The translations under genes and the position numbers were made by a program. DNA of 64,000 nt from a virus. Positions 3,294 through 54,783 of this stretch are shown here, piece by piece; the stretch's first letter is position 1; every line of letters starts with the position of its first letter. The notes beneath the pieces are model-generated. The model had not been told where the DNA came from. It did not search any database and saw nothing but the letters and a program-made list of their open reading frames with translations. The stretch covers positions 1 through 64,000 of IMG/VR virus record IMGVR_UViG_3300018059_000011. One strand, 5' to 3'.

Positions 3294-3755
3294 ATGCGTA
3301 AACTCATGGGACTGATTTTCACGGCGCTGATGCTGACGACGGCAACATCTGCATTCTCGCGCGACGGCTACGAGGGGCGGCCTTCGGTCTGCGCCCAGTC
3401 ATCCCCCGCGAGTGTCGAGCGCTGCCAACAGTGGATCAGCACGGTGCTGCGCCCCGACACGCGGACCTCATGCTGCGGTGACGGCGACTCTTTCATCGCC
3501 GATGACTTTGAACTCGGCCCGCATGGCGAACTCTATGCGATCATCAGCGTCGATTACCCGGACGTGACCGCGCCCGAGTCGGATGATGGGACTCCGAGCG
3601 TCACGGTCAGGATCACTCGGGGCACAAAGATTCTGGTGCCCGCCGACAAGCAGAATCACGCCCCGGAAGATGCCAACAGGTCCGGCCACGGCGTCATCTT
3701 CCTGCTGCCTGGGACCAAATCGGTGCTGTGCTACTTCGCGCCGCCGCTGATTTGA
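3294..3755 (+). CDS. Secreted Cys-rich protein
   Basis: RBS GGAGGAG; signal peptide MRKLMGLIFTALMLTTATSAFS; SCCGDGD...VLCYF motif. Confidence 0.75.
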   Translation: MRKLMGLIFTALMLTTATSAFSRDGYEGRPSVCAQSSPASVERCQQWISTVLRPDTRTSCCGDGDSFIADDFELGPHGELYAIISVDYPDVTAPESDDGTPSVTVRITRGTKILVPADKQNHAPEDANRSGHGVIFLLPGTKSVLCYFAPPLI

Positions 3756-4869: not shown

Positions 4870-5153
4870 TGAAAGAGATCGTCTTCGTAAGCCAGTCGCC
4901 AACCTCCGATCTCACTGTGAAGTGGAACAAGGACGGCACTGTGATGTTGACGTTGGCGTCGTCGCTTTCGACTGGGGCGACCGCCGAGAATCCGAAGCCC
5001 GTCGCCGCCGTCGAACTTGATTGGCCGACCTTGGCGGCGCTGAGACATTCCATCAATGTCGCCGAGGAGGCGGCTCTGGCAGAGGAACGTGAACGGGACG
5101 AGCTTCATAAGCTCGCCGGTCACATCGAAGGACAATTGGGGAGCATGGCATGA
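4869..5153 (+). CDS. Hypothetical protein
   Basis: Start MKEIVF coupled to the upstream stop. Confidence 0.65.
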   Translation: MKEIVFVSQSPTSDLTVKWNKDGTVMLTLASSLSTGATAENPKPVAAVELDWPTLAALRHSINVAEEAALAEERERDELHKLAGHIEGQLGSMA

Positions 5154-8977: not shown

Positions 8978-9052
8978 CTAGTGATAGCTCAGCAGTAGAG
9001 TATCGGTTTTGGAAACCGAGGGCCGGGAGGGCAGCACTCCCTCACTAGACCA
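8978..9052 (+). tRNA. tRNA-Pro(TGG) with atypical T-loop
   Basis: Acceptor CTAGTGA/TCACTAG, A73, CCA; anticodon stem TCGGT/ACCGA with loop TT-TGG-AA; T-arm GGGAG-GGCAGCA-CTCCC. Confidence 0.85.
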
Positions 9053-9073
9053 GATTCGGTGATGGAGTTTGTC

Positions 9074-9226
9074 ATGGCAAGTCTCGGAAAGTTCAAGGTC
9101 AAGACGAATGACACAAAAGGACCGACCCCGCCTCTGCCGGGTCAGCCACCGAAGGGTCATGGCCCAAAGGGAGCGCCCGTAGGGGTCGGCTCCATGAAGA
9201 AGTTGGACGACAAAGCCTACTGCTAA
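9074..9226 (+). CDS. 50-aa Lys/Pro/Gly-rich protein
   Basis: Hand translation MASLGKFKVKTNDTKGPTPPLPGQPPKGHGPKGAPVGVGSMKKLDDKAYC*; RBS GGAG. Confidence 0.6.
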   Translation: MASLGKFKVKTNDTKGPTPPLPGQPPKGHGPKGAPVGVGSMKKLDDKAYC

Positions 9227-9287
9227 GTCGCCCCCGGTTTTCTCCTGATAAATTTCGTTCCTGAATAACTGGCGGTGATATTTTGCC

Positions 9288-9737
9288 ATGTTTGATAAGG
9301 AGAAGTACGACCGAAACCGGGATAAAGCAAAACGTCGTGCCCAAAATAAAGTCTATTGGGATCGGCACGGTGAAGTTGCGAAACATAAAAATAGAAATGC
9401 GACAAAATTACGCCAAGAGACTTTGGGTTTTGTGTATACTGGTAGACCTGGAAGGCCATCTAAGTTCAAAGATGGCAAGACTACATTAGAGCGGCGTAAA
9501 GAGATTCGGGACTACGCATGGAGGTATAAAGAAAGCCATCCGTGCGTAGATTGCGGCGAGAAGAATCCGATAGTTTTGGAGTTCGATCACAGGGACAGGA
9601 AAACAAAACTTTTTCATATAGGGGCCGGAAATACTAAGAATCGCGCCATTGAAGAAGTGAAGGATGAAATTGAAAAATGCGATGTACGTTGCGCTAATTG
9701 CCATCGCATCAAGACGTGGATTGAGAATTTACTCTGA
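9288..9737 (+). CDS. HNH homing endonuclease (family A)
   Basis: HPCVDCGEKNPIVLEFDH...KCDVRCANCHR; AT-rich. Confidence 0.85.
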   Translation: MFDKEKYDRNRDKAKRRAQNKVYWDRHGEVAKHKNRNATKLRQETLGFVYTGRPGRPSKFKDGKTTLERRKEIRDYAWRYKESHPCVDCGEKNPIVLEFDHRDRKTKLFHIGAGNTKNRAIEEVKDEIEKCDVRCANCHRIKTWIENLL

Positions 9738-10033
9738 ATGCCGTTTGGCATCAGGCTATTACGACCCCAGGTCGGACGTGAGGACCAGCGAAGTCTTCAT
9801 CCTTCCTGAATTACACTGGCCGCCATAGGCGGCGTTAGCTGTCGCGTCCGGGTAATGACCGGGCGGCTCGCGGAGAGCGCAGATACCAGAACTGTCGGCG
9901 GCATCTTGTTCGTTGTGGCGTGGCGTGGTGATGGGCGGTCGGGGATAACAGATGAGCCCCGACCGCCCGGAATGTGGGTAGGCCAGCGTTAATGGCCCGG
10001 TGTCATTGCTCGATAGCCGGTGGCGCCCACAAC
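9738..10033 (+). ncRNA. Candidate structured non-coding RNA(s)
   Basis: Run of GC-rich hairpins (GTGAGGAC/GTCTTCAT, GCCGCC/GGCGGC, GGGCGGTCGGGG/CCCCGACCGCCC, GTGGG...CCCAC junction); no credible ORF. Confidence 0.45.
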
Positions 10034-11761: not shown

Positions 11762-12123
11762 TGGTCCCAAAGATCGACGATCCGAATGCGCTTCCTCTCC
11801 GCACAATCCTCGTGATGTGCGTTCAAGCGGCTGTGGTTGCCCGCACGCTCGCGAACAGTGGCGACCGGCAGGCCGCCGGTAAGCTCGCGAGAGTTGTCAC
11901 TTCGGTATCGGACGGCCTTGGCAATCCCCAAGACCTGCTGAACGCCGTTGACGGCGCCATGAAAATTCTCGAAGCGCGTAAGATTCAGGTTGACAGCAAA
12001 GAAGTCGCCAGGGCCTCGAAAGCCGCCGATATGGCGATGAACATGGTCGAGGAATGGGTTGGCCTGACCCTCTCGAATATCCGCCGGAGAGTACACGAGG
12101 AGCGCGGTCGCAAAAGCGCTTGA
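11761..12123 (+). CDS. Hypothetical protein
   Basis: Start coupled by TGATG. Confidence 0.65.
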   Translation: MVPKIDDPNALPLRTILVMCVQAAVVARTLANSGDRQAAGKLARVVTSVSDGLGNPQDLLNAVDGAMKILEARKIQVDSKEVARASKAADMAMNMVEEWVGLTLSNIRRRVHEERGRKSA

Positions 12124-12171
12124 CTTTGGTTAACCCTCCTGGTAAAGTTCGACCAATCCTGGGAGGATGCA

Positions 12172-12906
12172 ATGAACCAAGTCGATAATTTGATCCACAT
12201 GGCGATGGTAGGTTCTGAGGCTCACGGCCTCGCGCGGGCCGATAGCGATCTCGATGTCCGGGCAGTCTACGTCGCCCCTAAGTCGAAGGTGCTGTCGCCG
12301 TTCTTCACGCCTCATTCGCCCCAAGAGATCAGCGGTGATGTCGATTTCTCCGCGTGGGAGCTTCGCCCCTTCGTGAAGATGTGTGCGTCGGCGAATCCGA
12401 ACTCACTTGAAGCGCTGTTTTCGGATGAGCGCTGTACCGTCGATCTTGTTGACGCGCATCCATTCGACGCGATGGCCGGGATCACGCTTGTGGCCGCGCG
12501 CAGTTTGTTCTTGACCAAGCGCATCGCGGCGACGCACGCGGGCTTCGCGAAGTCATGTATTCGCCGGTTGGAGCACGGTAAGACCCGCACGGGCGACCGC
12601 ACCGTCGATGTCGAGCGCTTCGGCTATGACACCAAGTACGCGATGCACGCCGTTCGCATTCTCGGCGTGGCCGTTCGTGCGCTTCAGCGTGGTGAGTACA
12701 AGATCATGGTCGATGAAGACGAGCGAAAGCTCCTGATCGCGATCCGCGAAGGCCAGTTCTCGAAGGATTGGGTGCTCGGCCAGATCGACAGCCGGGTGCT
12801 GGCGGCAGAGCGGGCGGCGCAGAAGTCGGATTTGCCGGACGAGCCGAGCATCAAGAATATCGAAGCCTTGGTGGAGGCCGTCAGCGAGATTTCCTGGCAG
12901 AAGTAA
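12172..12906 (+). CDS. DNA polymerase beta-superfamily nucleotidyltransferase (PF10127/RlaP-like)
   Basis: GSEAHGLARADSDLDVRAVY motif; ANPN.LE.L; YDTKYAMHAVR. Confidence 0.85.
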   Translation: MNQVDNLIHMAMVGSEAHGLARADSDLDVRAVYVAPKSKVLSPFFTPHSPQEISGDVDFSAWELRPFVKMCASANPNSLEALFSDERCTVDLVDAHPFDAMAGITLVAARSLFLTKRIAATHAGFAKSCIRRLEHGKTRTGDRTVDVERFGYDTKYAMHAVRILGVAVRALQRGEYKIMVDEDERKLLIAIREGQFSKDWVLGQIDSRVLAAERAAQKSDLPDEPSIKNIEALVEAVSEISWQK

Positions 12907-12978
12907 AGAAAAAGGCGGCGGTGGAAGCTTGACGTTGGGGAGGAGGGCCGTCGAGCTTGCCTGGATTACCGCCGCCAG
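12905..12978 (-). ncRNA. Candidate sRNA with anti-SD CCUCCUCCC loop (cuckoo/alpha-r14-like)
   Basis: Minus strand GGCGGCGGU...AAGCUCGACG-GCCCUCCUCCCCAA-CGUCAAGCUU..ACCGCCGCC-UUUUUCUUU; own promoter upstream. Confidence 0.7.
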
Positions 12979-12984
12979 AAGACC

Positions 12985-13014
12985 AGAATACTCTCCGGTC
13001 AGCGCCGAAGTCAA
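12985..13014 (-). promoter_or_regulatory. Sigma70-like promoter of the sRNA
   Basis: TTGACT-N18-TATTCT on the minus strand. Confidence 0.65.
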
Positions 13015-13016
13015 CC

Positions 13017-13046
13017 TTGCTTTTTCCGCGTCGTTCGTGCTACATT
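13017..13046 (+). promoter_or_regulatory. Divergent promoter for the packaging operon
   Basis: TTGCTT-N18-TACATT. Confidence 0.5.
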
Positions 13047-13074
13047 TCTCCGAGGGTGATGGAGGGAAATCCCA

Positions 13075-13494
13075 GTGGGCAAAAAGCCGCCGTTGATGCA
13101 GATGCCGTTTATTCGCGGCAAGCTCGAAAAAGAACCTAGTCAGAGCGGACTTATCAATCCGCTTGATCCGCGTAACATCAAGAAGGGGATTGGCGGCGGC
13201 GAAAGCCGCATCGTAGTCATCGTCCTCGAACGCGCGGGCGACGGCAAGACCGTTATCCGCGTGAAGCTCTATTCCACCAGCCCCGGTCGCCGCGTGTCGT
13301 ACCGCGACATCGAGTTCGAGGGCCGGTCGGAGTCCGAGTTTGTCCGCGATGTCAATATCACGGGTGGTGCCCTCGCTGAATGGCAGAACGCGACGGGGGA
13401 CAATCACGATCCGAGTTTGTGCGCGCGGGCCGCCGTCGAAGGAATGCGCGAAGCGCTGATGCAGTATGCGGCGATTAGGGCGAGGCGAGGATGA
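13075..13494 (+). CDS. Hypothetical protein
   Basis: 139 aa; RBS GGAGG; GTG start. Confidence 0.7.
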   Translation: MGKKPPLMQMPFIRGKLEKEPSQSGLINPLDPRNIKKGIGGGESRIVVIVLERAGDGKTVIRVKLYSTSPGRRVSYRDIEFEGRSESEFVRDVNITGGALAEWQNATGDNHDPSLCARAAVEGMREALMQYAAIRARRG

Positions 13495-13928
13495 GCACGA
13501 AGACAAAATGGATTTCAGCCGGTGTCAGCGACGGCGATCTCGCTGTCGCGCTGAGTAGCGGCAATGGCGGTGATTGGTTTTTGCTGATTGCGATCACCGG
13601 AGCCGACCGTAGGCCCCATCAGATCAAGGTCATGCTCGGAGGGCTTGATCTCGACGCCGCTGTCCACAACGCGGGCGGCGCCGCAGCCGCTATTGCCAAG
13701 GTCATTGGCGTCGATGAGACTTGGGCGGCGTCCACGACTCGCGATCTTATCGCCAATGACATTGCCAAAGACCCCGAACTTGGCCCGTTGCTGGTGAAAG
13801 GGCTGTCGTCCGGCGCCGCCGGGAAACCAGCGGTTTCCAAGAAGGCGAAGGCTGCCCCTCCCAAGCAAAGGAAAACCGGCAAAGGCCCGAAGAAGGCCGC
13901 TCGCCGTGTTCGCCGTGTTCGCCGTTAA
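13491..13928 (+). CDS. Hypothetical protein with basic C-terminal tail
   Basis: ATGA overlap; C-terminus KKAKAAPPKQRKTGKGPKKAARRVRRVRR. Confidence 0.7.
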   Translation: MSTKTKWISAGVSDGDLAVALSSGNGGDWFLLIAITGADRRPHQIKVMLGGLDLDAAVHNAGGAAAAIAKVIGVDETWAASTTRDLIANDIAKDPELGPLLVKGLSSGAAGKPAVSKKAKAAPPKQRKTGKGPKKAARRVRRVRR

Positions 13929-13981
13929 GGCGCCCCTCGACCGGACGAAGGAACCGCCCGTGGAAACGCTGGGGCTGAAGC

Positions 13982-15559
13982 ATGGCCGCGCGTAAACTTC
14001 CCGTTTATGAACTCTGGGAGATTCTCGACCGCCGGGTTGTCGTCAAATACGCTGACGGCATCAGCTTCGAGTGGTGGCTCGTTGTTGATGGCGATCACGA
14101 TGCTTGGCATCCGTATGTGGTCGCGGCGGACGGAATCACGATCATGGAGGCCCCGGTCTGGGCGCCGCTGCCCGGATCGCAGTACCAATTCCTTCAGTGT
14201 CCTGTGCAGGAGGCGCTTCTCGCCGGTAATCGTGGTCCTGGCAAGACGATGGCTCTGCTTATGGACTTCGCTCGTGAGGTCGGTAAGGGATACGGCTCTA
14301 AGTGGCGCGGCATTCTCTTCCGCCGCCATTTCGGTGACCTCGACGACGTGGTTCGTAAGATCGAGGATACATTTCCGACGATCTTTGGGCCGGGCTTTCG
14401 TTTTCTGAAGTCCAAATCTGAGTACGCAGCCGTCTGGGAAACCGGCGAGACCCTTTTGCTCCGGCATCTTGCTGATGCCAGTGAGTACGAGGAGTACCAC
14501 GGCCATGAATATCCGTGGATGGGCTTTGAAGAATTGACACAATGGCCGACCGACGACGCATTCACGTTGATGCTGTCGTGCAATCGCCCTACCGGCCCCG
14601 GCATTCCTTGTCGCGTGCGGGCGACGACAAATCCGAGTGGCCCAGGCCACCGCTGGGTGAAGAAGCGCTACAATCTGCCGCACGGATTCGGAAAGATCAT
14701 TCGCAATCCTGGCGAGATTCCCCGCGTCGCCATCAACAGCCACTTGAAAGAGAATTTTATTCTCCTGCATTCGAGCCCGAACTATGCCGACACGATTCGG
14801 CAGGCCGCTAAGTCCCCGGCGAAGATCGAGGCATGGCTCAATGGTAGTTGGGACATTACATCCGGCGGCATGTTCGACGATTTGTGGGAACCGCCTATTC
14901 ACATTGTTCCCAATTTCGGGTCCAAGCGCATCCCGCGTGGGTGGACTGTCACGAGGTCGTATGACCACGGCCAGAGTCATCCGTTCGCGAATCTCTGGTG
15001 GCTGGAGTCCAACGGCGAGAGCATCACCGTTGAGGGTCGTCAGATCGGCGGCGTTCGCGGCGACCTCATCCTGTTTCAAGAATGGTACGGAGCCAAGGGC
15101 GACAACGAAGGCATTCGGATGTCGGCCACGAACATCGCCGGGGGCATTCTCGAACGCGAAGATGACATGGGCCTGCGTGGTCGCGTGTCTCCTGGTCCGG
15201 CGGATAATCAGATTTGGACGAAGGACGCACGCGGCACGCAGCGGGCTCCGATTGATGACATGGAAGAGAAGGGCCTGCATTGGGTTCGCGCCGATCAATC
15301 GCCGGGCTCGATCAAGCGCGGGCTCGAACTCATTCGTGAATCTATCGAGGGGTCGATCCCTGAAAAGGACGGCACGCGGACGCGGCCTGGAATCTTTGTT
15401 TGTGGGCGATGCGCGCATTGGATCGACCTTGTGCCAACGGCGCCGCGAGACACCGATGACCCAGATGCTTTGCCGAAAGGCTACGAAGATCACTTGGCCG
15501 ACGCCACGCGGTATCGCTTGACGTTCGTGTTGCCCGGAATGTGGCGGCGCAGTTTTTAG
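13982..15559 (+). CDS. terL: Terminase large subunit
   Basis: WAPLPGSQ, Walker A AGNRGPGKT, Walker B GFEELTQ, motif III RATTNP, nuclease SYDHG and EDHLADATRY. Confidence 0.95.
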   Translation: MAARKLPVYELWEILDRRVVVKYADGISFEWWLVVDGDHDAWHPYVVAADGITIMEAPVWAPLPGSQYQFLQCPVQEALLAGNRGPGKTMALLMDFAREVGKGYGSKWRGILFRRHFGDLDDVVRKIEDTFPTIFGPGFRFLKSKSEYAAVWETGETLLLRHLADASEYEEYHGHEYPWMGFEELTQWPTDDAFTLMLSCNRPTGPGIPCRVRATTNPSGPGHRWVKKRYNLPHGFGKIIRNPGEIPRVAINSHLKENFILLHSSPNYADTIRQAAKSPAKIEAWLNGSWDITSGGMFDDLWEPPIHIVPNFGSKRIPRGWTVTRSYDHGQSHPFANLWWLESNGESITVEGRQIGGVRGDLILFQEWYGAKGDNEGIRMSATNIAGGILEREDDMGLRGRVSPGPADNQIWTKDARGTQRAPIDDMEEKGLHWVRADQSPGSIKRGLELIRESIEGSIPEKDGTRTRPGIFVCGRCAHWIDLVPTAPRDTDDPDALPKGYEDHLADATRYRLTFVLPGMWRRSF

Positions 15560-18311: not shown

Positions 18312-18884
18312 GTGACTGTAATCGCATATTCCACGAAGACGCGCATCATGGCTGCCGACAGCCGGTGCTCGAATGAAAACATGATGCACCTGACGAATTG
18401 CCGGAAGATTTTCCGGTTGGAGAACGGTGCGCTTCTTGGTACGTCCGGCGACAGCGATGACCGCGATGTTCGCGTGCTGTTGGCGAAGGCCACCCCACGT
18501 AACATGCCTTCGCGCTCCGCGCTCGCGGCATTGAAATGCTGCTTCCACGGCATCATGGTGTTCCCGAAGGGGCAGGTTTTCCTCGTCTGCATCGACTGGT
18601 ATGAGCACGAGGCCGAAGGTGAGTGGATGGCCGGTGTCGATCCGATCACCGACGAGATCATCGCCATCGGTCACGGCATGGAATACGCCTATGGAGTTCT
18701 CGAACACGGCGGGACTCCGCTCGAAGCGGTGCGTTGCGCGTGCAAGCGCGACACTACCTGCGCGTTGCCGATCCAATGGGAGAGCCTTGACGGCGACCGC
18801 AAGAGCGCAGATACTCCAGAAATCCCTGCTCCCGCTGCTCCTCCGGTGGCACCTGTTGTCGCCAAGCCCAAGAGGAAGAAGTGA
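18312..18884 (+). CDS. Ntn-hydrolase (proteasome beta/HslV-like) protein
   Basis: N-terminal (M)TVIAY, MAADSR, RKIF, GTSGD, AIGHG.EYAYG motifs. Confidence 0.75.
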   Translation: MTVIAYSTKTRIMAADSRCSNENMMHLTNCRKIFRLENGALLGTSGDSDDRDVRVLLAKATPRNMPSRSALAALKCCFHGIMVFPKGQVFLVCIDWYEHEAEGEWMAGVDPITDEIIAIGHGMEYAYGVLEHGGTPLEAVRCACKRDTTCALPIQWESLDGDRKSADTPEIPAPAAPPVAPVVAKPKRKK

Positions 18885-19453
18885 ACGCGGTAGCGAAACG
18901 CGAAAGCTCGCAGATCGTAATTGCTAAAAAGAAGCGGAAGGCATTTCTCGCGCTTTTGGCTACGACCGGCAATGCGATCAAGGCCGCGCAAGCGGTGGGC
19001 TATAAAGACACTCGCGAACTCAACAAGTATCGTCATCAGGATGCCGAGTTTTCCCGTGAGTGGGACGAGGCCGTCAATGCCGCTGCCGACATGCTGGAGG
19101 CAGAGGCATGGCGCCGTGCTCACGATGGAGTTGACGAACCCCAGTTTTACAAGGGCGAAATTTGCGGTCACGTCACGCGATACAGCGACACCTTGCTCGT
19201 GAAGTTGTTGCAAGCTTTGCGGCCCGAGAAGTTCCGCGATGCGACCGTGCATCATACCGGCGAGATCACCCATAAGATCGGCGTCGCTTTGCTTCCGACT
19301 ACGGCCAAGAGCGCCGTCGATTGGGAGAAGGAATCTTTGGCGATGCACGAAAACCAAAAGTCTCTGCCAGCGCCAGCCGGATTTGATCCCCCGAGGCCAA
19401 AGCCAGAGCCCGTCATCATCGACGCAAAGGCCACCGAAATTAAACGGGGTTGA
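18881..19453 (+). CDS. terS: Terminase small subunit
   Basis: AFLALLATTGN...AA..VG HTH; D.LEAEAWRRA.DGVDEP.FYKGE..G.V..YSDTLL..LL...RPEKF. Confidence 0.75.
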   Translation: MNAVAKRESSQIVIAKKKRKAFLALLATTGNAIKAAQAVGYKDTRELNKYRHQDAEFSREWDEAVNAAADMLEAEAWRRAHDGVDEPQFYKGEICGHVTRYSDTLLVKLLQALRPEKFRDATVHHTGEITHKIGVALLPTTAKSAVDWEKESLAMHENQKSLPAPAGFDPPRPKPEPVIIDAKATEIKRG

Positions 19454-20714: not shown

Positions 20715-20743
20715 AACGGGCGGCGGTGTCGCCCGTTTTTTTT
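20715..20743 (+). terminator. Rho-independent terminator
   Basis: AACGGGCGGC-GGT-GTCGCCCGTT followed by a T run. Confidence 0.8.
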
Positions 20744-38988: not shown

Positions 38989-39422
38989 TGCCAACCTCAG
39001 CCTCCTATCTCGCCCGTGCTCGTTCGTATCTCGGGACGCCATTTCGGCACCAGGGTCGTAAGCCCGGTATGGGGCTGGACTGCGTGGGCGTGCTCGTTTG
39101 CGCGGGACGAGCCGAGGGCATAGAGGTTACGGACACGCCGAACTATCGCCGCCACGCCGACTGGGCTACATTCACAGCGAAGTTCAATGAGAATGCCGAC
39201 TGGGTTGGCAATAGCCTCGATGCTCTCGAACCGGGCCGCATAATTATTCTTCGCGACGGTAAGTATCAGACGCATTGCGCTGTCATCGGCACCGATCCCG
39301 TGGATGGCGCTTTCACGATTGTTCACGCCTATGAGCCCCGTGGCAAAGTCGTAGAGGAGCGCATCACTGAGGACTGGCGTTCTCGCATTGTCGGTGTCTA
39401 TAAACTTCGGGGTCTTGACTAA
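38988..39422 (+). CDS. NlpC/P60 tail-associated peptidase
   Basis: ARSYLGTPFRHQGR....LDCVG...HCAV...VHA. Confidence 0.9.
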   Translation: MPTSASYLARARSYLGTPFRHQGRKPGMGLDCVGVLVCAGRAEGIEVTDTPNYRRHADWATFTAKFNENADWVGNSLDALEPGRIIILRDGKYQTHCAVIGTDPVDGAFTIVHAYEPRGKVVEERITEDWRSRIVGVYKLRGLD

Positions 39423-42400
39423 TGGGTCAGGTAGGCCAACTCGTTGTCGGCGTAGTCGGGGGCGTTATCGGCGCATTCTTCGGGGTGCCGCAGCTTGGCT
39501 TCATGCTGGGGTCGTTGGCTGGCAGCTTTCTGTTCCCAACAAAAGGACCAAATCAGGAAGGCCCGCGTCTTGACAACCTCTCGGTCACGTCATCGACCTA
39601 CGGCCAGCCGATCTTCATTATCTACGGCACCGTTCGTGTTGGGGGCAATATCATTTGGTCGAAGCCGATCCGTGAACAAAAGACGGTGACCAAGCAGAGC
39701 GGCGGCAAGGGCGGCGCTGGAAGCAGCGGCAAGACCACGACCTATGCTTATTACTGGACGGGAGCCGTCGCTCTCGGCGAAGGCCCGATTGTCGATGTCG
39801 TGAAGATTTGGACCGATACCAAGATCGCGTATGACCGTACTGGAACTTCGAGCACTGTCCGCAAGCCAGATTTTCGTTTCCGTGTCTACTACGGTGACGA
39901 GTTGCAGATGCCGGATGCGGCTATCGCCGCTGACAAGGGCGACGCCAATGTCACTGCTCATCGAGGTATGGCCTACATCGTGTTCGATGACATTCCGCTG
40001 AAGGACTATGGCAACCGTGTTCCTAGTTTTACGTTCGAGGTCGTCGCCAATACCGGCGGTGCCACAGCCACGGGCGTTCACGGGATCATCGACTTGACGA
40101 GCGGGCCGGTCGCGGCTCCGCGCACTGGCATCCTTGTTCCTAACTGGGTGCATCGTCGGCTCTACAAATTCCGTGACGGCGACTCCGGGGGCATCCATGT
40201 CTATAATATGGAGACGCGAAAAGAGATTCGGCAAGCTGCGGTATTCGACGTAGTGGAACCCGATGATTCTTTTAGTCTTGGTTTTGGAGGCGAAGTCGCA
40301 GTAGACGATGATGGTTTCATTTACGCCCAGCTTACTAGCGGCGGCGCCAACAGCCGAGCGGTTGTCAAGATCGACGGCTTCTCTCTGAAAGAAGTCGCCC
40401 GAATCGGTAGCTCCTCGTCCAATTTGGACCCGCTCAAGAACATCATTACCGGGGATAATTTTTGCGTCGTCAATGCCTATTCCGCCACTGGCCTGAATCG
40501 CTATCTTGTGAATTGCGATTACCGAGGGGATGTGCAGTTCATTCACTGCGGCGGCAGCGGCATGACCCTCTCATGTGTTACGTCTGTGGATGAGTTCAAA
40601 GCCTATGGCGTTCCGGGTGAGACCCGAGATGGGCGGGCCGTGTGCTATCTTGTCGGTCGCGCGCAGTTTGGCCCGCAATCGACGGAGCCTTTTGGCATCT
40701 ATCGGATAACGGTGCCGGGCACCGCATATTTGTCGGCGATCACCGACCAGCCTAATCCGGTTTTCACACGTACCAAACTCGGGACTATCTCGCCCACCCA
40801 AGTCGTCTCGTGGTGGTCCTATTTCAACAGCTTCGGTGGCTCGTTCTACGACACCCATGAGGGCCGTCTCTATCTTTTGGTGGAGGGTGGCCGCTTCTTC
40901 ACGACCAAGACGAAGTATCTCGTCCGATACAATCCCGAGACGGCCTCGGTTGAATGGGCGAAGCCCCTCACCGTCAGCTTTTCCTTTACCGCTTACAATG
41001 GATTCTATCGTGTAAACTCCGGTTTTGTTTCGTTCGTGGGCGACACAAATTTCGGGACTCACACGAGTCCTGTGCAGACCTTCAATCTTTCGACCGGGGA
41101 TAGCGCCGAGACCGACCAGTGGGACTTCGAGGGCACGGTCGGTGGCGCCCAGACCTATGATTCTCAAACTGGGGCGATCATTGCTGTTGGTACTACCCTG
41201 GCGGATACCGGAGAGACGAATTGCATTATCTACACCGGCAGGGCCTCATCCGCTGGGGCCAACCTTGGTGACATCGTTACGAATCTGTGTGGTCGCGTTG
41301 GCCTGGAATCATCTGACATCGACGTGGCCGAACTCACCGATGACGTGGATGGATATGTCATCAACAATCAATCTACGGTGCGCTCGGCTATCGAGCCTTT
41401 GGCGCTGACCTTCAATTTCGATGGAGTGGAATCGGATGACACTTTGAAGTTCCTGAAGCGTGGCCGTGCGTCGTCGCTGACATTGACCCAGCCTGATCTC
41501 AAATTCCTTAGCGATCAGGAAGGCGAGTTTCTTCGCGAGACGCGGATGCAGGAAGTGGAGTTGCCCGAGCGTGTGTCTCTGGTCTACCTGGACCCAGGCA
41601 AGGACTACCAGCAGAACACTCAGACTACTAAACGAATCAGCAAGCCGACGCCTAGCATGTTCTCGGCCAATCAAATCTCGAACACGATTCCAGTCGTGAT
41701 GTCGGCGTCATTTGCCAAGCAACTTTCCGAGACGCTCCTGTACACGTCTTGGATCGAACGCATTCGCCAGGAGATCGCGATTAGCTGGGAGTACGCGAAG
41801 CTCGATCCTGTCGATGCCGTGACGATCAATCTCGACAATGGAACGGTATATGAAGTCCGGCTTACCTCGGTTGACATTGGCGCCGATCTGACGATGGAAC
41901 TGAAGTCGGTGAACGAGAAGGCGACCTCTTATTCCTCGCATGTTCCGGCTGACGGCGGCGATGGATTCCCGCAGCAGGTTCTTCCTGGCCTGAGCACGAC
42001 CAAGACTTTCATCATGGACTGCACGTTGCTTCGCGATAGCGACGATACCGGCGGTACTGTGTCGCGGATGTACGCCGCTGGTGGCGGCTTTGGTCAGCCC
42101 AATTGGCCCGGTGAGCAAATCGAGCACAGCGCCGATGGCAGCTTCTACAATGTGGTCGCCCAGATTCCGAATGAGTCTGCATGGGGATCGGTGGGGGATG
42201 CCCTTCCCGGCGTCACTAATCCTTTTGCCACGGACGAAGATAACACCATCACCGTGTTCATGAACTCTGGTGAGGATCAGCTTGAGAGCATCACCGATCT
42301 GGAGATGGTGAATGGGGCCAATCCTGCGATCTTGTGGGATGAGGCTACTGGCAATCTCGAAGTTATCCAATACCGCGATGTCACGCAAAATGATGACGGC

Positions 42401-42964
42401 AGCTACACGTTGTCTGGTCTCTTGCGTGGCCGCCGTGGTACTGACACTTTCGTGGGTTCTCATGTTGCTGGCGAAACCCTGCTTCTTATCAGCGCCGACA
42501 CTACGGAATCTTTTCTCCTCGGACTCGGTGAACTGAACGTATCTCGGTACTATAAAGGCGTTCCGTATGGAACGGTCTTCGAGGATGCCCCGTTGAAGAT
42601 CATCACCAGCACTGGTCGTGATTTGAAGCCCTACGCCCCGGTTAATGTGGCTGCGGCCATTGACGGCAGTGACATCGACTTGACCTGGGACCGCCGGACT
42701 CGCATCGGTGGGGCCTTGCAAGACGGCATCGGAACCGTGGTTTTGGGCGAGACTACGGAAGCCTACGAGGTTGACATCTGGAACGGCGCCGGGGATACTG
42801 TATTGAGGACTTTGACCTCGACTACGACCACGGTTACCTACCTGGACGCGGACATTACCACGGATTTCGGCTCGATCCCGGCTACGTTGACGGTTACGGT
42901 TTACCAGATGAGCGCAGCGGTCGGAAGGGGCTTTGGCAAGAAGGTGACGGTCGATGTCGTGTAA
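39422..42964 (+). CDS. Tail tip / central fibre protein (GTA megatron, Phage-tail_3-like)
   Basis: GPRL......STYG.PI..IYG..RV.GN.IW; AHRG.AYIVF....L.DYGNR.P...FEV; LSGLLRGRRGT; W.RRTR. Confidence 0.9.
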   Translation: MGQVGQLVVGVVGGVIGAFFGVPQLGFMLGSLAGSFLFPTKGPNQEGPRLDNLSVTSSTYGQPIFIIYGTVRVGGNIIWSKPIREQKTVTKQSGGKGGAGSSGKTTTYAYYWTGAVALGEGPIVDVVKIWTDTKIAYDRTGTSSTVRKPDFRFRVYYGDELQMPDAAIAADKGDANVTAHRGMAYIVFDDIPLKDYGNRVPSFTFEVVANTGGATATGVHGIIDLTSGPVAAPRTGILVPNWVHRRLYKFRDGDSGGIHVYNMETRKEIRQAAVFDVVEPDDSFSLGFGGEVAVDDDGFIYAQLTSGGANSRAVVKIDGFSLKEVARIGSSSSNLDPLKNIITGDNFCVVNAYSATGLNRYLVNCDYRGDVQFIHCGGSGMTLSCVTSVDEFKAYGVPGETRDGRAVCYLVGRAQFGPQSTEPFGIYRITVPGTAYLSAITDQPNPVFTRTKLGTISPTQVVSWWSYFNSFGGSFYDTHEGRLYLLVEGGRFFTTKTKYLVRYNPETASVEWAKPLTVSFSFTAYNGFYRVNSGFVSFVGDTNFGTHTSPVQTFNLSTGDSAETDQWDFEGTVGGAQTYDSQTGAIIAVGTTLADTGETNCIIYTGRASSAGANLGDIVTNLCGRVGLESSDIDVAELTDDVDGYVINNQSTVRSAIEPLALTFNFDGVESDDTLKFLKRGRASSLTLTQPDLKFLSDQEGEFLRETRMQEVELPERVSLVYLDPGKDYQQNTQTTKRISKPTPSMFSANQISNTIPVVMSASFAKQLSETLLYTSWIERIRQEIAISWEYAKLDPVDAVTINLDNGTVYEVRLTSVDIGADLTMELKSVNEKATSYSSHVPADGGDGFPQQVLPGLSTTKTFIMDCTLLRDSDDTGGTVSRMYAAGGGFGQPNWPGEQIEHSADGSFYNVVAQIPNESAWGSVGDALPGVTNPFATDEDNTITVFMNSGEDQLESITDLEMVNGANPAILWDEATGNLEVIQYRDVTQNDDGSYTLSGLLRGRRGTDTFVGSHVAGETLLLISADTTESFLLGLGELNVSRYYKGVPYGTVFEDAPLKIITSTGRDLKPYAPVNVAAAIDGSDIDLTWDRRTRIGGALQDGIGTVVLGETTEAYEVDIWNGAGDTVLRTLTSTTTTVTYLDADITTDFGSIPATLTVTVYQMSAAVGRGFGKKVTVDVV

Positions 42965-46123: not shown

Positions 46124-47380
46124 GTGGGTGGAACGTCAGCCATCTTTGGTTTCTCTCGGCCAGGCCTTAGTTCCATAACGACCGGCGGCACGTCTCGCTA
46201 CTGGCCGCTCGGTGGTAACGGGTTTGGCTCTGCCAGCACGACCGAAGCTCTTGGTCAGATGTATTTCTATTCCAACGGAACGCTGAAGAATCTCGGTATT
46301 ACCATAACCACGAATACCTACACCCTCACATTCACCAGCCGGATCAATGGGGGCGCCGGGGCTCAGTCTATTTCGCAGACGGGCACTGGGCATTTTTCCG
46401 ATTCCTCGAATATGGATTCGGTTACGTCCGGCCAGAATGTATACATCAAGGCAGTGACTAGCGATGGCTCCCATACGGTCACCATTGCCGGTGGCGAAGT
46501 CGAGTTCAAAGCCAGCACTGGCAGCGGTAATCCGTTCTGCTTTAGCTCCAGCAGCTATACGGTTCCTGTCGAATACCAGTCGGGAGCGGGTTCGTTGTCG
46601 GCATTCGCGCCGCTGTACGGTGGCGCCCAGAACACAACGCCATCTCCCACGGAAACGAAACTGGCAGATACCAAGTTGCGGGTATCCGGTACACTTCAGC
46701 GTTATCAGACTTACGTGCTGGTGAATACCCGAACGGTTGCCTGCTCGGTTACTTCTCGAAAGAGCACTACCGATCAGAATCAATCGGTCTCGATCCCGAA
46801 CACCGGGGCCACGGGATATTTCGAGGATAGCAGCAACACCGATACCGTGTCGGGTGGCGACATCTGGAAGTACCATTTGAACGTTACCACCGGCACCGGG
46901 ACGCTTGGTCTTGCATGGATGGGATGCTGGTTCACGACGACCAATCATCAGTTCGATGTAGGATGCGGATGGGATAAAACTGTTGCGTCTATTTCTACTT
47001 CGGTTGACAATTTCTACCCGATTTCTGGCTACGGGGACTCTACAACGACTGAGGCCAATGTCAAGCAAGTGGCGATGTTCGATTTCACCGCCGGGAATCT
47101 TCGTTGCACGGTCCCGACAAATTCCTCTGGGACTACGGTAACGGCGGCACTGTCGATCAATGGTTCTGCTGGGACTATGGCCCTGAGCATCACCAATGCT
47201 GTTATCGGAGATTTTGAGGACAGCAGCAATCAAGACAGCATCACCGCGACGGAGACGCTCGCATTTAGGCATGGGCCGCCGAACAATTCCAGCTGGATCA
47301 TCTCCAACATCACGATGACCGGCGATCCCGGCGCTGCCCCACATCGCAAGCGCCGCATCTATTGGTCTCAAGGTGGGTAA
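46124..47380 (+). CDS. Ser/Thr/Gly-rich virion protein with three internal repeats
   Basis: TG.F.DSSN.D.V/I motif occurs three times. Confidence 0.7.
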   Translation: MGGTSAIFGFSRPGLSSITTGGTSRYWPLGGNGFGSASTTEALGQMYFYSNGTLKNLGITITTNTYTLTFTSRINGGAGAQSISQTGTGHFSDSSNMDSVTSGQNVYIKAVTSDGSHTVTIAGGEVEFKASTGSGNPFCFSSSSYTVPVEYQSGAGSLSAFAPLYGGAQNTTPSPTETKLADTKLRVSGTLQRYQTYVLVNTRTVACSVTSRKSTTDQNQSVSIPNTGATGYFEDSSNTDTVSGGDIWKYHLNVTTGTGTLGLAWMGCWFTTTNHQFDVGCGWDKTVASISTSVDNFYPISGYGDSTTTEANVKQVAMFDFTAGNLRCTVPTNSSGTTVTAALSINGSAGTMALSITNAVIGDFEDSSNQDSITATETLAFRHGPPNNSSWIISNITMTGDPGAAPHRKRRIYWSQGG

Positions 47381-54696: not shown

Positions 54697-54783
54697 TGCG
54701 CGGCCTCCTCCGACAGCGACAATAAGACATATCCGATAATCTTCGCAGCTTTCGATAAGCTATGCCTTATCGCGACGCTTCGC

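Follow-up and report, generated by a model that had tools for sequence, protein, structure and literature searches.

The 168-nt intergenic gap at positions 12907-13074 of the virus record IMGVR_UViG_3300018059_000011 carries on its minus strand a promoter-like site, a long hairpin with an anti-Shine-Dalgarno (anti-SD) sequence in its loop, and a U-tract. The best reading of this gap is a unit for a minus-strand RNA of about 70 nt, which is a candidate RNA as judged from the nucleotide sequence. It is tentatively proposed, with a probability somewhat short of an even chance, that an RNA of about 70 to 74 nt reaches from near position 12978 to the U-tract and pairs through its exposed loop with G-rich ribosome-binding sites (RBSs). 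Control of translation by this loop would be its probable function. The record is linear, comprises 84,543 bp with 58% G+C, and is complete to 87% according to the CheckV estimate; its first 64 kb are the stretch analyzed here and are called the “window,” and the whole record is the “genome.” It originates from freshwater sediment, and the stretch was also present in runs of two sediment studies from 2018, one of which is possibly the source. A self-contained minus-strand unit in an intergenic location had been described in the initial annotation of this DNA. The intergenic location was confirmed; the promoter-like site, the stems, the loop, and the U-tract were all found where they had been placed, and the anatomy of promoter-like site, long hairpin, and U-tract is statistically well above chance.

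The minus-strand hairpin at 12914-12976 is imperfect and comprises 63 nt. It starts with an outer GC stem of 9 bp (GGCGGCGGU, 12976-12968, with ACCGCCGCC, 12922-12914), continues after an internal loop with a 2-bp step (12961-12960 with 12924-12923), and ends with an inner stem of 10 positions (AAGCUCGACG, 12958-12949, with CGUCAAGCUU, 12934-12925), of which 9 are paired and one is a C·A mismatch. The apical loop of 14 nt, GCCCUCCUCCCCAA (12948-12935; UUGGGGAGGAGGGC when read on the plus strand), contains the anti-SD 9-mer CCUCCUCCC at 12946-12938. Directly 3' of the hairpin follows the U-tract UUUUUCUUU (12913-12905), which extends over the final two bases of the TAA codon that ends the upstream gene. 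The calculated fold of the minus-strand RNA has a free energy of −31.8 kcal/mol with a z-score of −4.33, none of 200 dinucleotide shuffles was as stable, and the frequency of the minimum free energy (MFE) structure is 0.66. The loop GCCCUCCUCCCCAA is unpaired in the MFE and in the centroid structure. CCUCCUCCC has a single occurrence in the genome, counting both strands, and the chance of finding it within one given 14-nt loop is about 5e-5. A second CCTCCTCC word at position 54704 was rejected as outside any hairpin loop.

T-tracts (8 or more T in 9 positions) are rare in this phage, with only seven on both strands of the 84,543 bp. Two of these seven adjoin strong hairpins, one being the candidate hairpin on the minus strand and the other the canonical terminator of the capsid gene on the plus strand, a textbook example with a hairpin at 20717-20735 followed by T8. 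The 9-bp GC stem of the candidate directly followed by UUUUUCUUU has the form of an intrinsic terminator on the minus strand. The two ordinary terminators of the phage are compact, with stems of 8 to 10 bp and loops of 3 to 6 nt, and a 63-nt rod with a 14-nt loop exceeds what termination requires. The scan for compact terminators, with loops of 3 to 8 nt, did not report this hairpin with its 14-nt loop. On the plus strand, the sequence after the hairpin (AGAAGACC) contains no U-run. Elsewhere in the genome (71683-71716, minus strand), a compact hairpin that resembles a terminator and has a T-rich tail overlaps the spacer and the −10 element of a strong promoter-like site; this sequence may serve as the end of one transcript and the start of the next.

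The minus-strand promoter-like site GTTGACT-N18-TATTCT occupies 12985-13014, with the −35 element at 13014-13009, the −10 element at 12990-12985, and 9 of 12 matches to the consensus. Its −10 element ends 9 nt ahead of the hairpin base. The site was reported by a general consensus scan around the gap, which yielded 2 sites per 3 kb compared to 0.6 expected. Such a 9-of-12 scan gave 48 matches genome-wide, many of them intragenic, and is a poor predictor here. The pattern [GC]TTGAC[AT]-N16-19-TAnnnT was more informative: it occurs at 12 sites in the genome compared to 0.78 ± 0.84 expected from 100 simulations, and the site at 13014 is one of these 12. When the matrix was trained on the other 11 sites only, the site at 13014 ranked 12 or 20 of 168,974 with core blocks. 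It appears from these numbers to be a real but weaker member of a promoter family of this phage, with membership assigned by pattern and a sigma-70-type activity that is predicted.

The plus-strand sites of this family are located at 1652, 7118, 12120, 19450, 28711, and 42771, and the minus-strand sites at 13014, 47064, 55223, 66092, 71716, and 75931, with the last three beyond the window; all were assigned by pattern match, and the −10 element is often TAGAGT. At least five are positioned directly upstream of gene starts in the correct orientation, namely 7118, 12120, 19450, and 28711 on the plus and 55223 on the minus strand, and the plus-strand site at 42771 falls inside the gene at 39422-42964. 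The top-scoring site of the family, 47064 on the minus strand, lies antisense inside a plus-strand tail gene (46124-47380). The initial annotation had also placed a rightward promoter back-to-back with the minus-strand one. A plus-strand site does exist, TTGCTT-N18-TACATT at 13018-13047 (with an accuracy of about 1 nt), and the −35 elements of both sites are 3 bp apart, but it is only a weak match: scored with the matrix of the phage promoters, it reaches rank 71 of 168,974, and it is not among the sites given by the general promoter scan.

The U-tract, the promoter-like site, and the lack of a plus-strand U-run past the hairpin all point to the minus strand. A minus-strand RNA unit is favored because the T-tract adjoins the hairpin, the promoter-like site is 9 nt upstream, and all neighboring genes are on the plus strand. 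Between about 2.2 and 52.3 kb, the gene layout is that of a GC-rich genome with long open reading frames (ORFs) tiled head-to-tail, all of them on the plus strand, and a minus-strand terminator has therefore no other obvious transcript to end. The T-tract and the promoter-like site are also independent of the CCUCCUCCC motif, and it is very unlikely that one hairpin should be framed on one strand by both a fortuitous promoter match and a fortuitous T-tract. From these features and their statistical excess, we infer transcription, the ends of the RNA, its pairing, and the resulting effect in the following way. A sigma-70-type promoter of the phage family, GTTGACT-N18-TATTCT, would start transcription around 12978, two nucleotides before the hairpin, so that the RNA would be essentially one long rod. 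The 9-bp GC base together with UUUUUCUUU would act, by its anatomy, as an intrinsic terminator. The tip of the rod would expose GCCCUCCUCCCCAA, a copy of the anti-SD core, and this loop may pair with G-rich RBSs (GGAGG with G or A extensions) of phage or host mRNAs and block the access of the 30S subunit. The mode of pairing would be that of each loop of the cuckoo/ar14/CcsR RNAs and of the RBS-covering loops of the c4 RNA of phages P1 and P7.

Evaluation of this reading needs to consider a number of observations that weigh against it. The hairpin is located exactly where a 3' element of the upstream plus-strand gene would be, beginning 8 nt past the stop codon of this gene. The plus-strand RNA also has the more stable fold (−34.5 kcal/mol, z-score of −3.39, 1 of 200 shuffles as stable), and it possesses a U·G pair at the position of the minus-strand C·A mismatch, which mildly favors a plus-strand RNA. 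The 9-mer CCUCCUCCC is expected with 0.77 copies per genome, and at least one copy occurred in 53% of 300 first-order simulated genomes; its presence somewhere in the genome is by itself not surprising. When wide blocks were used, the promoter-like site at 13014 dropped to rank 94 of 168,974; it has an 18-nt spacer, and its −10 element is without the G at position 5 that is found in 8 of the 11 other sites. Start sites of the phage with perfect complements of 7 to 9 nt to the loop, which in themselves agree with the reading, are found at 5136, 6636, 18299, 23980, 27704, 31180, and others, but this complementarity does not exceed the ordinary SD content of early and late genes. Among the loop-complementary RBSs of the phage, no private tag, extension, or clustering in one gene class was found, and without a private extension, specific targets are not nameable. 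This applies also to the five RBSs named as candidate targets in the initial annotation: the words are present in all five cases, 6 to 9 nt before the ATG codons at 3294, 16208, 19844, 31864, and 48358, but they are ordinary SD words matching the loop complement. An anti-SD RNA would, moreover, also strike the phage's own genes. Finally, a close relative with a comparable gap was found neither among the GenBank phages nor in IMG/VR, the metagenome contigs of JGI, or the species genome set.

The comparison with the cuckoo RNAs adds to these counts. This alphaproteobacterial family comprises ar14, including NfeR1/SmelC397 of Sinorhizobium meliloti, and CcsR1-4/RSs0680 of Rhodobacter sphaeroides (RF02344 and RF02791). 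Cuckoo RNAs are composed of 2 to 4 adjacent hairpins, each with CCUCCUCCC in the loop (PMC4615179); the CcsR RNAs have two motif hairpins each and are processed from the 3' untranslated region of a DUF1127 gene (PMC8034643), and ar14/NfeR1 has three motif hairpins, with redundant anti-SD seeds that occlude RBSs (PMC10746234). It is correct that CCUCCUCCC loops mark cuckoo/ar14/CcsR small RNAs (sRNAs), as the initial annotation had stated. The candidate shares with them the exact CCUCCUCCC in an unpaired hairpin loop, and as in the ar14 consensus, this loop is that of the terminator hairpin at the 3' end. The cuckoo matcher was limited to hairpins of 24 to 50 nt with loops of 9 to 27 nt (PMC4615179); the inner hairpin at 12925-12958, with 34 nt and a 14-nt loop, is within these limits, and the whole rod with its 63 nt is outside them. 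Unlike the cuckoo RNAs, the candidate has one hairpin instead of 2 to 4, a single 9-mer genome-wide, and an additional 9-bp outer stem that extends it to the 63-nt rod. It is also phage-borne, with its own promoter-like site, antisense to its neighbors, and not assigned to a host clade. A DUF1127 gene was not found in the phage genome, with none among six candidates at E ≤ 1.

At the gathering thresholds of Rfam, which are 58.8 bits for ar14 and 65.3 bits for CcsR1, only four tRNAs were recovered in the window. A permissive search of the 91-nt stretch gave ar14 on the minus strand as the best of 4227 models with 10.6 bits and an E value of 2.9, which is not significant, and a search of the genome gave a local ar14 match with 11.9 bits and an E value of 0.34 per genome. 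These 10.6 to 11.9 bits are under the threshold of 58.8 bits and count likewise on the negative side, as does the absence of a CcsR1 match at the hairpin. The ar14 alignment sets the inner hairpin on the last, 3' terminator hairpin of ar14, which is also motif-bearing, and weak matches with scores of this size occur in 9 of 14 control genomes. Beyond this weak match, no Rfam family aligned to the hairpin. The Rfam comparison proposed in the initial annotation thus turned out negative, with thresholds not reached and an architecture that is not that of a cuckoo RNA. Because of the one hairpin, the one motif genome-wide, the lack of a DUF1127 gene, and the sub-threshold Rfam scores, the candidate element does not belong to the cuckoo/ar14/CcsR family. 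Its one module resembles a cuckoo module and may, by analogy, function like one. As a whole, the earlier interpretation is partly supported; its suggestion of a decoy for the host sRNA system is speculation because a host was not identified.

A more specific version of the proposal would be that a lytic-type phage, with an uncultured sediment bacterium as its host, encodes a minimal, one-hairpin, cuckoo-like anti-SD RNA of about 70 nt, antisense to its neighbors, in which the terminator hairpin is at the same time the seed and competes with the tail of the 16S rRNA for strong RBSs. This version is possible but must be regarded as rather doubtful. Such a one-hairpin RNA could time the switch from middle to late translation or could damp host translation, and it may have originated by capture of one host cuckoo module or by convergence.

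Relatives of the flanking genes were all distant. With blastn, positions 12000-14000 gave no match to GenBank phages, and two loop patterns gave none in IMG/VR. TerL, the large terminase encoded downstream of the gap, recovered 8 loci with 38 to 45% identity in IMG/VR and 1 locus with 40% identity in genome contigs, which belongs to a metagenome-assembled genome of the Deltaproteobacteria. The nucleotidyltransferase encoded upstream of the gap was compared to metagenome contigs, where the best 80 of 526 loci all had 27 to 34% identity. Nothing analogous, in the form of a hairpin with CCUCC in its loop, was present before the packaging genes at the 8 distant TerL loci, and no similar hairpin was found downstream of 32 of the 80 nucleotidyltransferase homologs (29 with readable sequence, 3 with too little). 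In Bordetella phage CN1 and Pseudomonas phage Ab18, the gap that precedes terS-terL is repeat-rich and contains no counterpart.

Natural variants were surveyed in contigs of four sediment runs at low depth. The contig of run X2 was identical across 12140-13113. Run X4 provided one 151-nt contig with a depth of 2 that covers 12885-13033 and differs by five unplaced substitutions and by an inserted CT behind 12947, differences that may be errors given this depth. The insertion lies next to the 9-mer and gives a loop of 16 nt, and the positions of the 9-mer and the stems are undisturbed by this indel. One such variant agrees with a constraint on the motif but proves little. The nucleotidyltransferase ORF, compared over 12150-12900, displayed 0 to 1 differences in pieces from runs X3, X4, and X5, and the pieces to the left (12019-12126) and to the right (12885-13361) of it differ by 5 to 17%. 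This pattern suggests that the nucleotidyltransferase gene was recently exchanged as a cassette among related phages, with the right border of the cassette at the hairpin.

These data allow other explanations of the gap to be weighed. The minus-strand unit may be real but act in cis, with the loop sequence being incidental, an explanation that uses the same promoter, hairpin, and U-tract and is considered unlikely. Such a unit could form, through the two complementary G/C-rich loops, a kissing complex with the fully complementary read-through mRNA and lead to cleavage of the duplex, as lambda OOP does with the cII mRNA; it could interfere by convergent transcription with that of the plus strand; or it could be a terminated by-product of back-to-back promoters, with a terminator that shields the upstream genes from antisense transcription. 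Because the plus strand has no U-tract here, transcripts from the promoter at 12120 should cross the hairpin and provide the perfect complement, the weak rightward promoter is indeed back-to-back with the minus-strand site with only 3 bp between the −35 elements, and no specific target in trans stands out. An action in cis would leave unexplained, however, the 11-nt identity of the loop to a known regulatory seed, at about 5e-5 per given loop, and also why a compact terminator like the others of this phage would not suffice. Alternatively, the functional RNA may be that of the plus strand, acting either at the 3' end of the nucleotidyltransferase mRNA or between cistrons, for which the chance is judged to be small. 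It could stabilize the message against 3' exonucleases, provide an RNase III-type site that splits middle from late messages, or present a “super-SD” loop, GGGGAGGAGGG, as a standby site or decoy for the 30S subunit, and the promoter-like site and the U-tract of the minus strand would be secondary or fortuitous. The position of the hairpin 8 nt past the plus-strand stop codon within a block of genes all on the plus strand, the higher stability of −34.5 kcal/mol, and the U·G pair instead of C·A agree with this explanation. So does a plus-strand terminator-like hairpin at the equivalent pre-packaging boundary in Bordetella phage CN1 and, judged by eye, likewise in Pseudomonas phage Ab18, and GGAGG-rich words are normal in plus-strand intergenic sequences. 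A plus-strand function would nevertheless turn two minus-strand features of low probability into coincidences, the hairpin without a U-tract is not a canonical terminator on that strand although the phage uses canonical ones, and no usable ORF follows the SD-like loop GGGGAGGAGGG.

It is quite improbable that the hairpin lacks an RNA function of its own and is only a relic or a site acting at the DNA level, be it an inherited terminator of the cassette, a recombination boundary, or a palindrome for protein binding or packaging. Such an origin would agree with the near-identity of the nucleotidyltransferase ORF in three other runs between flanks that are 5 to 17% different, with the change-over near the hairpin, and with the long, repeat-rich, non-coding stretch that related phages have before their packaging genes. 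The gap here is short and without repeats, however, and terS is displaced to 18881-19453. A relic would also not be expected to preserve an intact promoter together with an intact stem, exposed motif, and U-tract, and the variant contig retains the motif.

The genes next to the gap are all on the plus strand. Upstream, the nucleotidyltransferase gene (12172-12906) encodes an RlaP-like protein (Pfam PF10127, 2.5e-21; PHROG 388, 3.4e-42); it has its own promoter-like site at 12120-12148, and its stop codon contacts the U/A-tract. In the leader of this gene (12124-12171), the anti-SD-like sequence CCCUCCUGG can form a duplex of −10.5 kcal/mol with the SD sequence CCUGGGAGG of this same gene; the upstream arm CCCUCCUGG falls into the promoter spacer and would consequently be found only in read-through transcripts. 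Downstream, an ORF of 139 amino acids without assigned function (13075-13494) is the first gene of the block toward TerL, with a weak match to PHROG 7569 and with sequence relatives only in its own two-member cluster. Within 13075-13494, most differences of the variant contigs affect the third position of codons in this frame. A TTG-start frame of 60 codons past GGGGAGGAGGG (12957-13139) was rejected; it has no family match and is broken by a 1-nt deletion of the variant contig at 13045. The frame of a long antisense ORF (12553-13506) would likewise shift through the two indels of the variant. An ORF of 145 amino acids follows in the tiling before TerL (13982-15559). The small terminase gene terS (18881-19453, PHROG 4044) is displaced and located behind the genes for the portal and an HslV-like peptidase.

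Portal, capsid, and large terminase are 47 to 64% identical to their counterparts in YuA/M6-like siphoviruses of Pseudomonas and Bordetella, and for portal and capsid these phages are the nearest, with 54 to 64% identity. Neither these relatives nor those of TerL identified a host, and the word statistics of the genome were suggestive only. The words GANTC (311 compared to 478 ± 20), TTAA (51 compared to 119), and CTAG (44 compared to 120) are rarer than in first-order simulations, and GGCC is more common (596 compared to 463), which may reflect avoidance of methylation or restriction words of a host. The gaps directly before terS-terL in CN1 and Ab18 measure 640 to 926 nt and are repeat-rich and non-coding (L094:1812-2452 and L095:1482-2407), compared to the 168-nt gap without repeats and the two ORFs of unassigned function ahead of terL in this phage. 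Farther upstream, two non-coding stretches (9050-9287 and 9738-9973) flank the ORF at 9288-9737 and have plus-strand folds of −85.5 and −107.6 kcal/mol; no Rfam family was found in them at gathering level.

If the anti-SD RNA is real, a phage copy of the mRNA-docking sequence of the ribosome would be a simple and general means to re-rank the translation of messages with strong and weak RBSs, and the cuckoo principle would reach beyond alphaproteobacterial chromosomes. Only 110 bp carry the promoter-like site, the RNA, and the terminator. If the hairpin is instead an antisense insulator or an mRNA-end hairpin, the finding would be an ordinary one. A phage-borne RNA of the cuckoo type or with a generic anti-SD action was not found in the literature, judged largely by titles and abstracts. 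Phage RNAs that cover RBSs as such are already known, c4 of P1 and P7 being the example, and the unit described here is a well-formed candidate rather than a demonstrated RNA.

To understand this candidate, it can be compared to systems that are already established. Phage sRNAs have been described chiefly in temperate enterobacterial phages, where they act on specific messages. The OOP RNA of lambda is a short antisense RNA from a unit with its promoter, a single hairpin, and an intrinsic terminator, and it triggers cleavage of its duplex with the cII mRNA. The c4 RNA is processed from a longer transcript and recognizes the ant message, encoded in the same operon, at specific complementary sites. 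Compared to intrinsic terminators, the candidate agrees in the GC-rich stem immediately followed by a U-run on the minus strand and differs in its 63 nt, its internal loops, its 14-nt apical loop, and the lack of an upstream gene on the minus strand. Like OOP, it would be a unit of about 70 to 80 nt in antisense orientation at the end of a gene on the opposite strand, but in the case of OOP it is the 3' end of the coding region of cII that is overlapped, whereas here it is only 2 nt of the upstream stop codon, the remainder being non-coding. Unlike c4, it has a generic anti-SD word in the loop, for which no private target was identified. In c4, the loops of a phage sRNA pair around the RBS of the target and block translation (PMC12197685), and the candidate would resemble it as a phage-encoded RNA with an RBS-covering loop.

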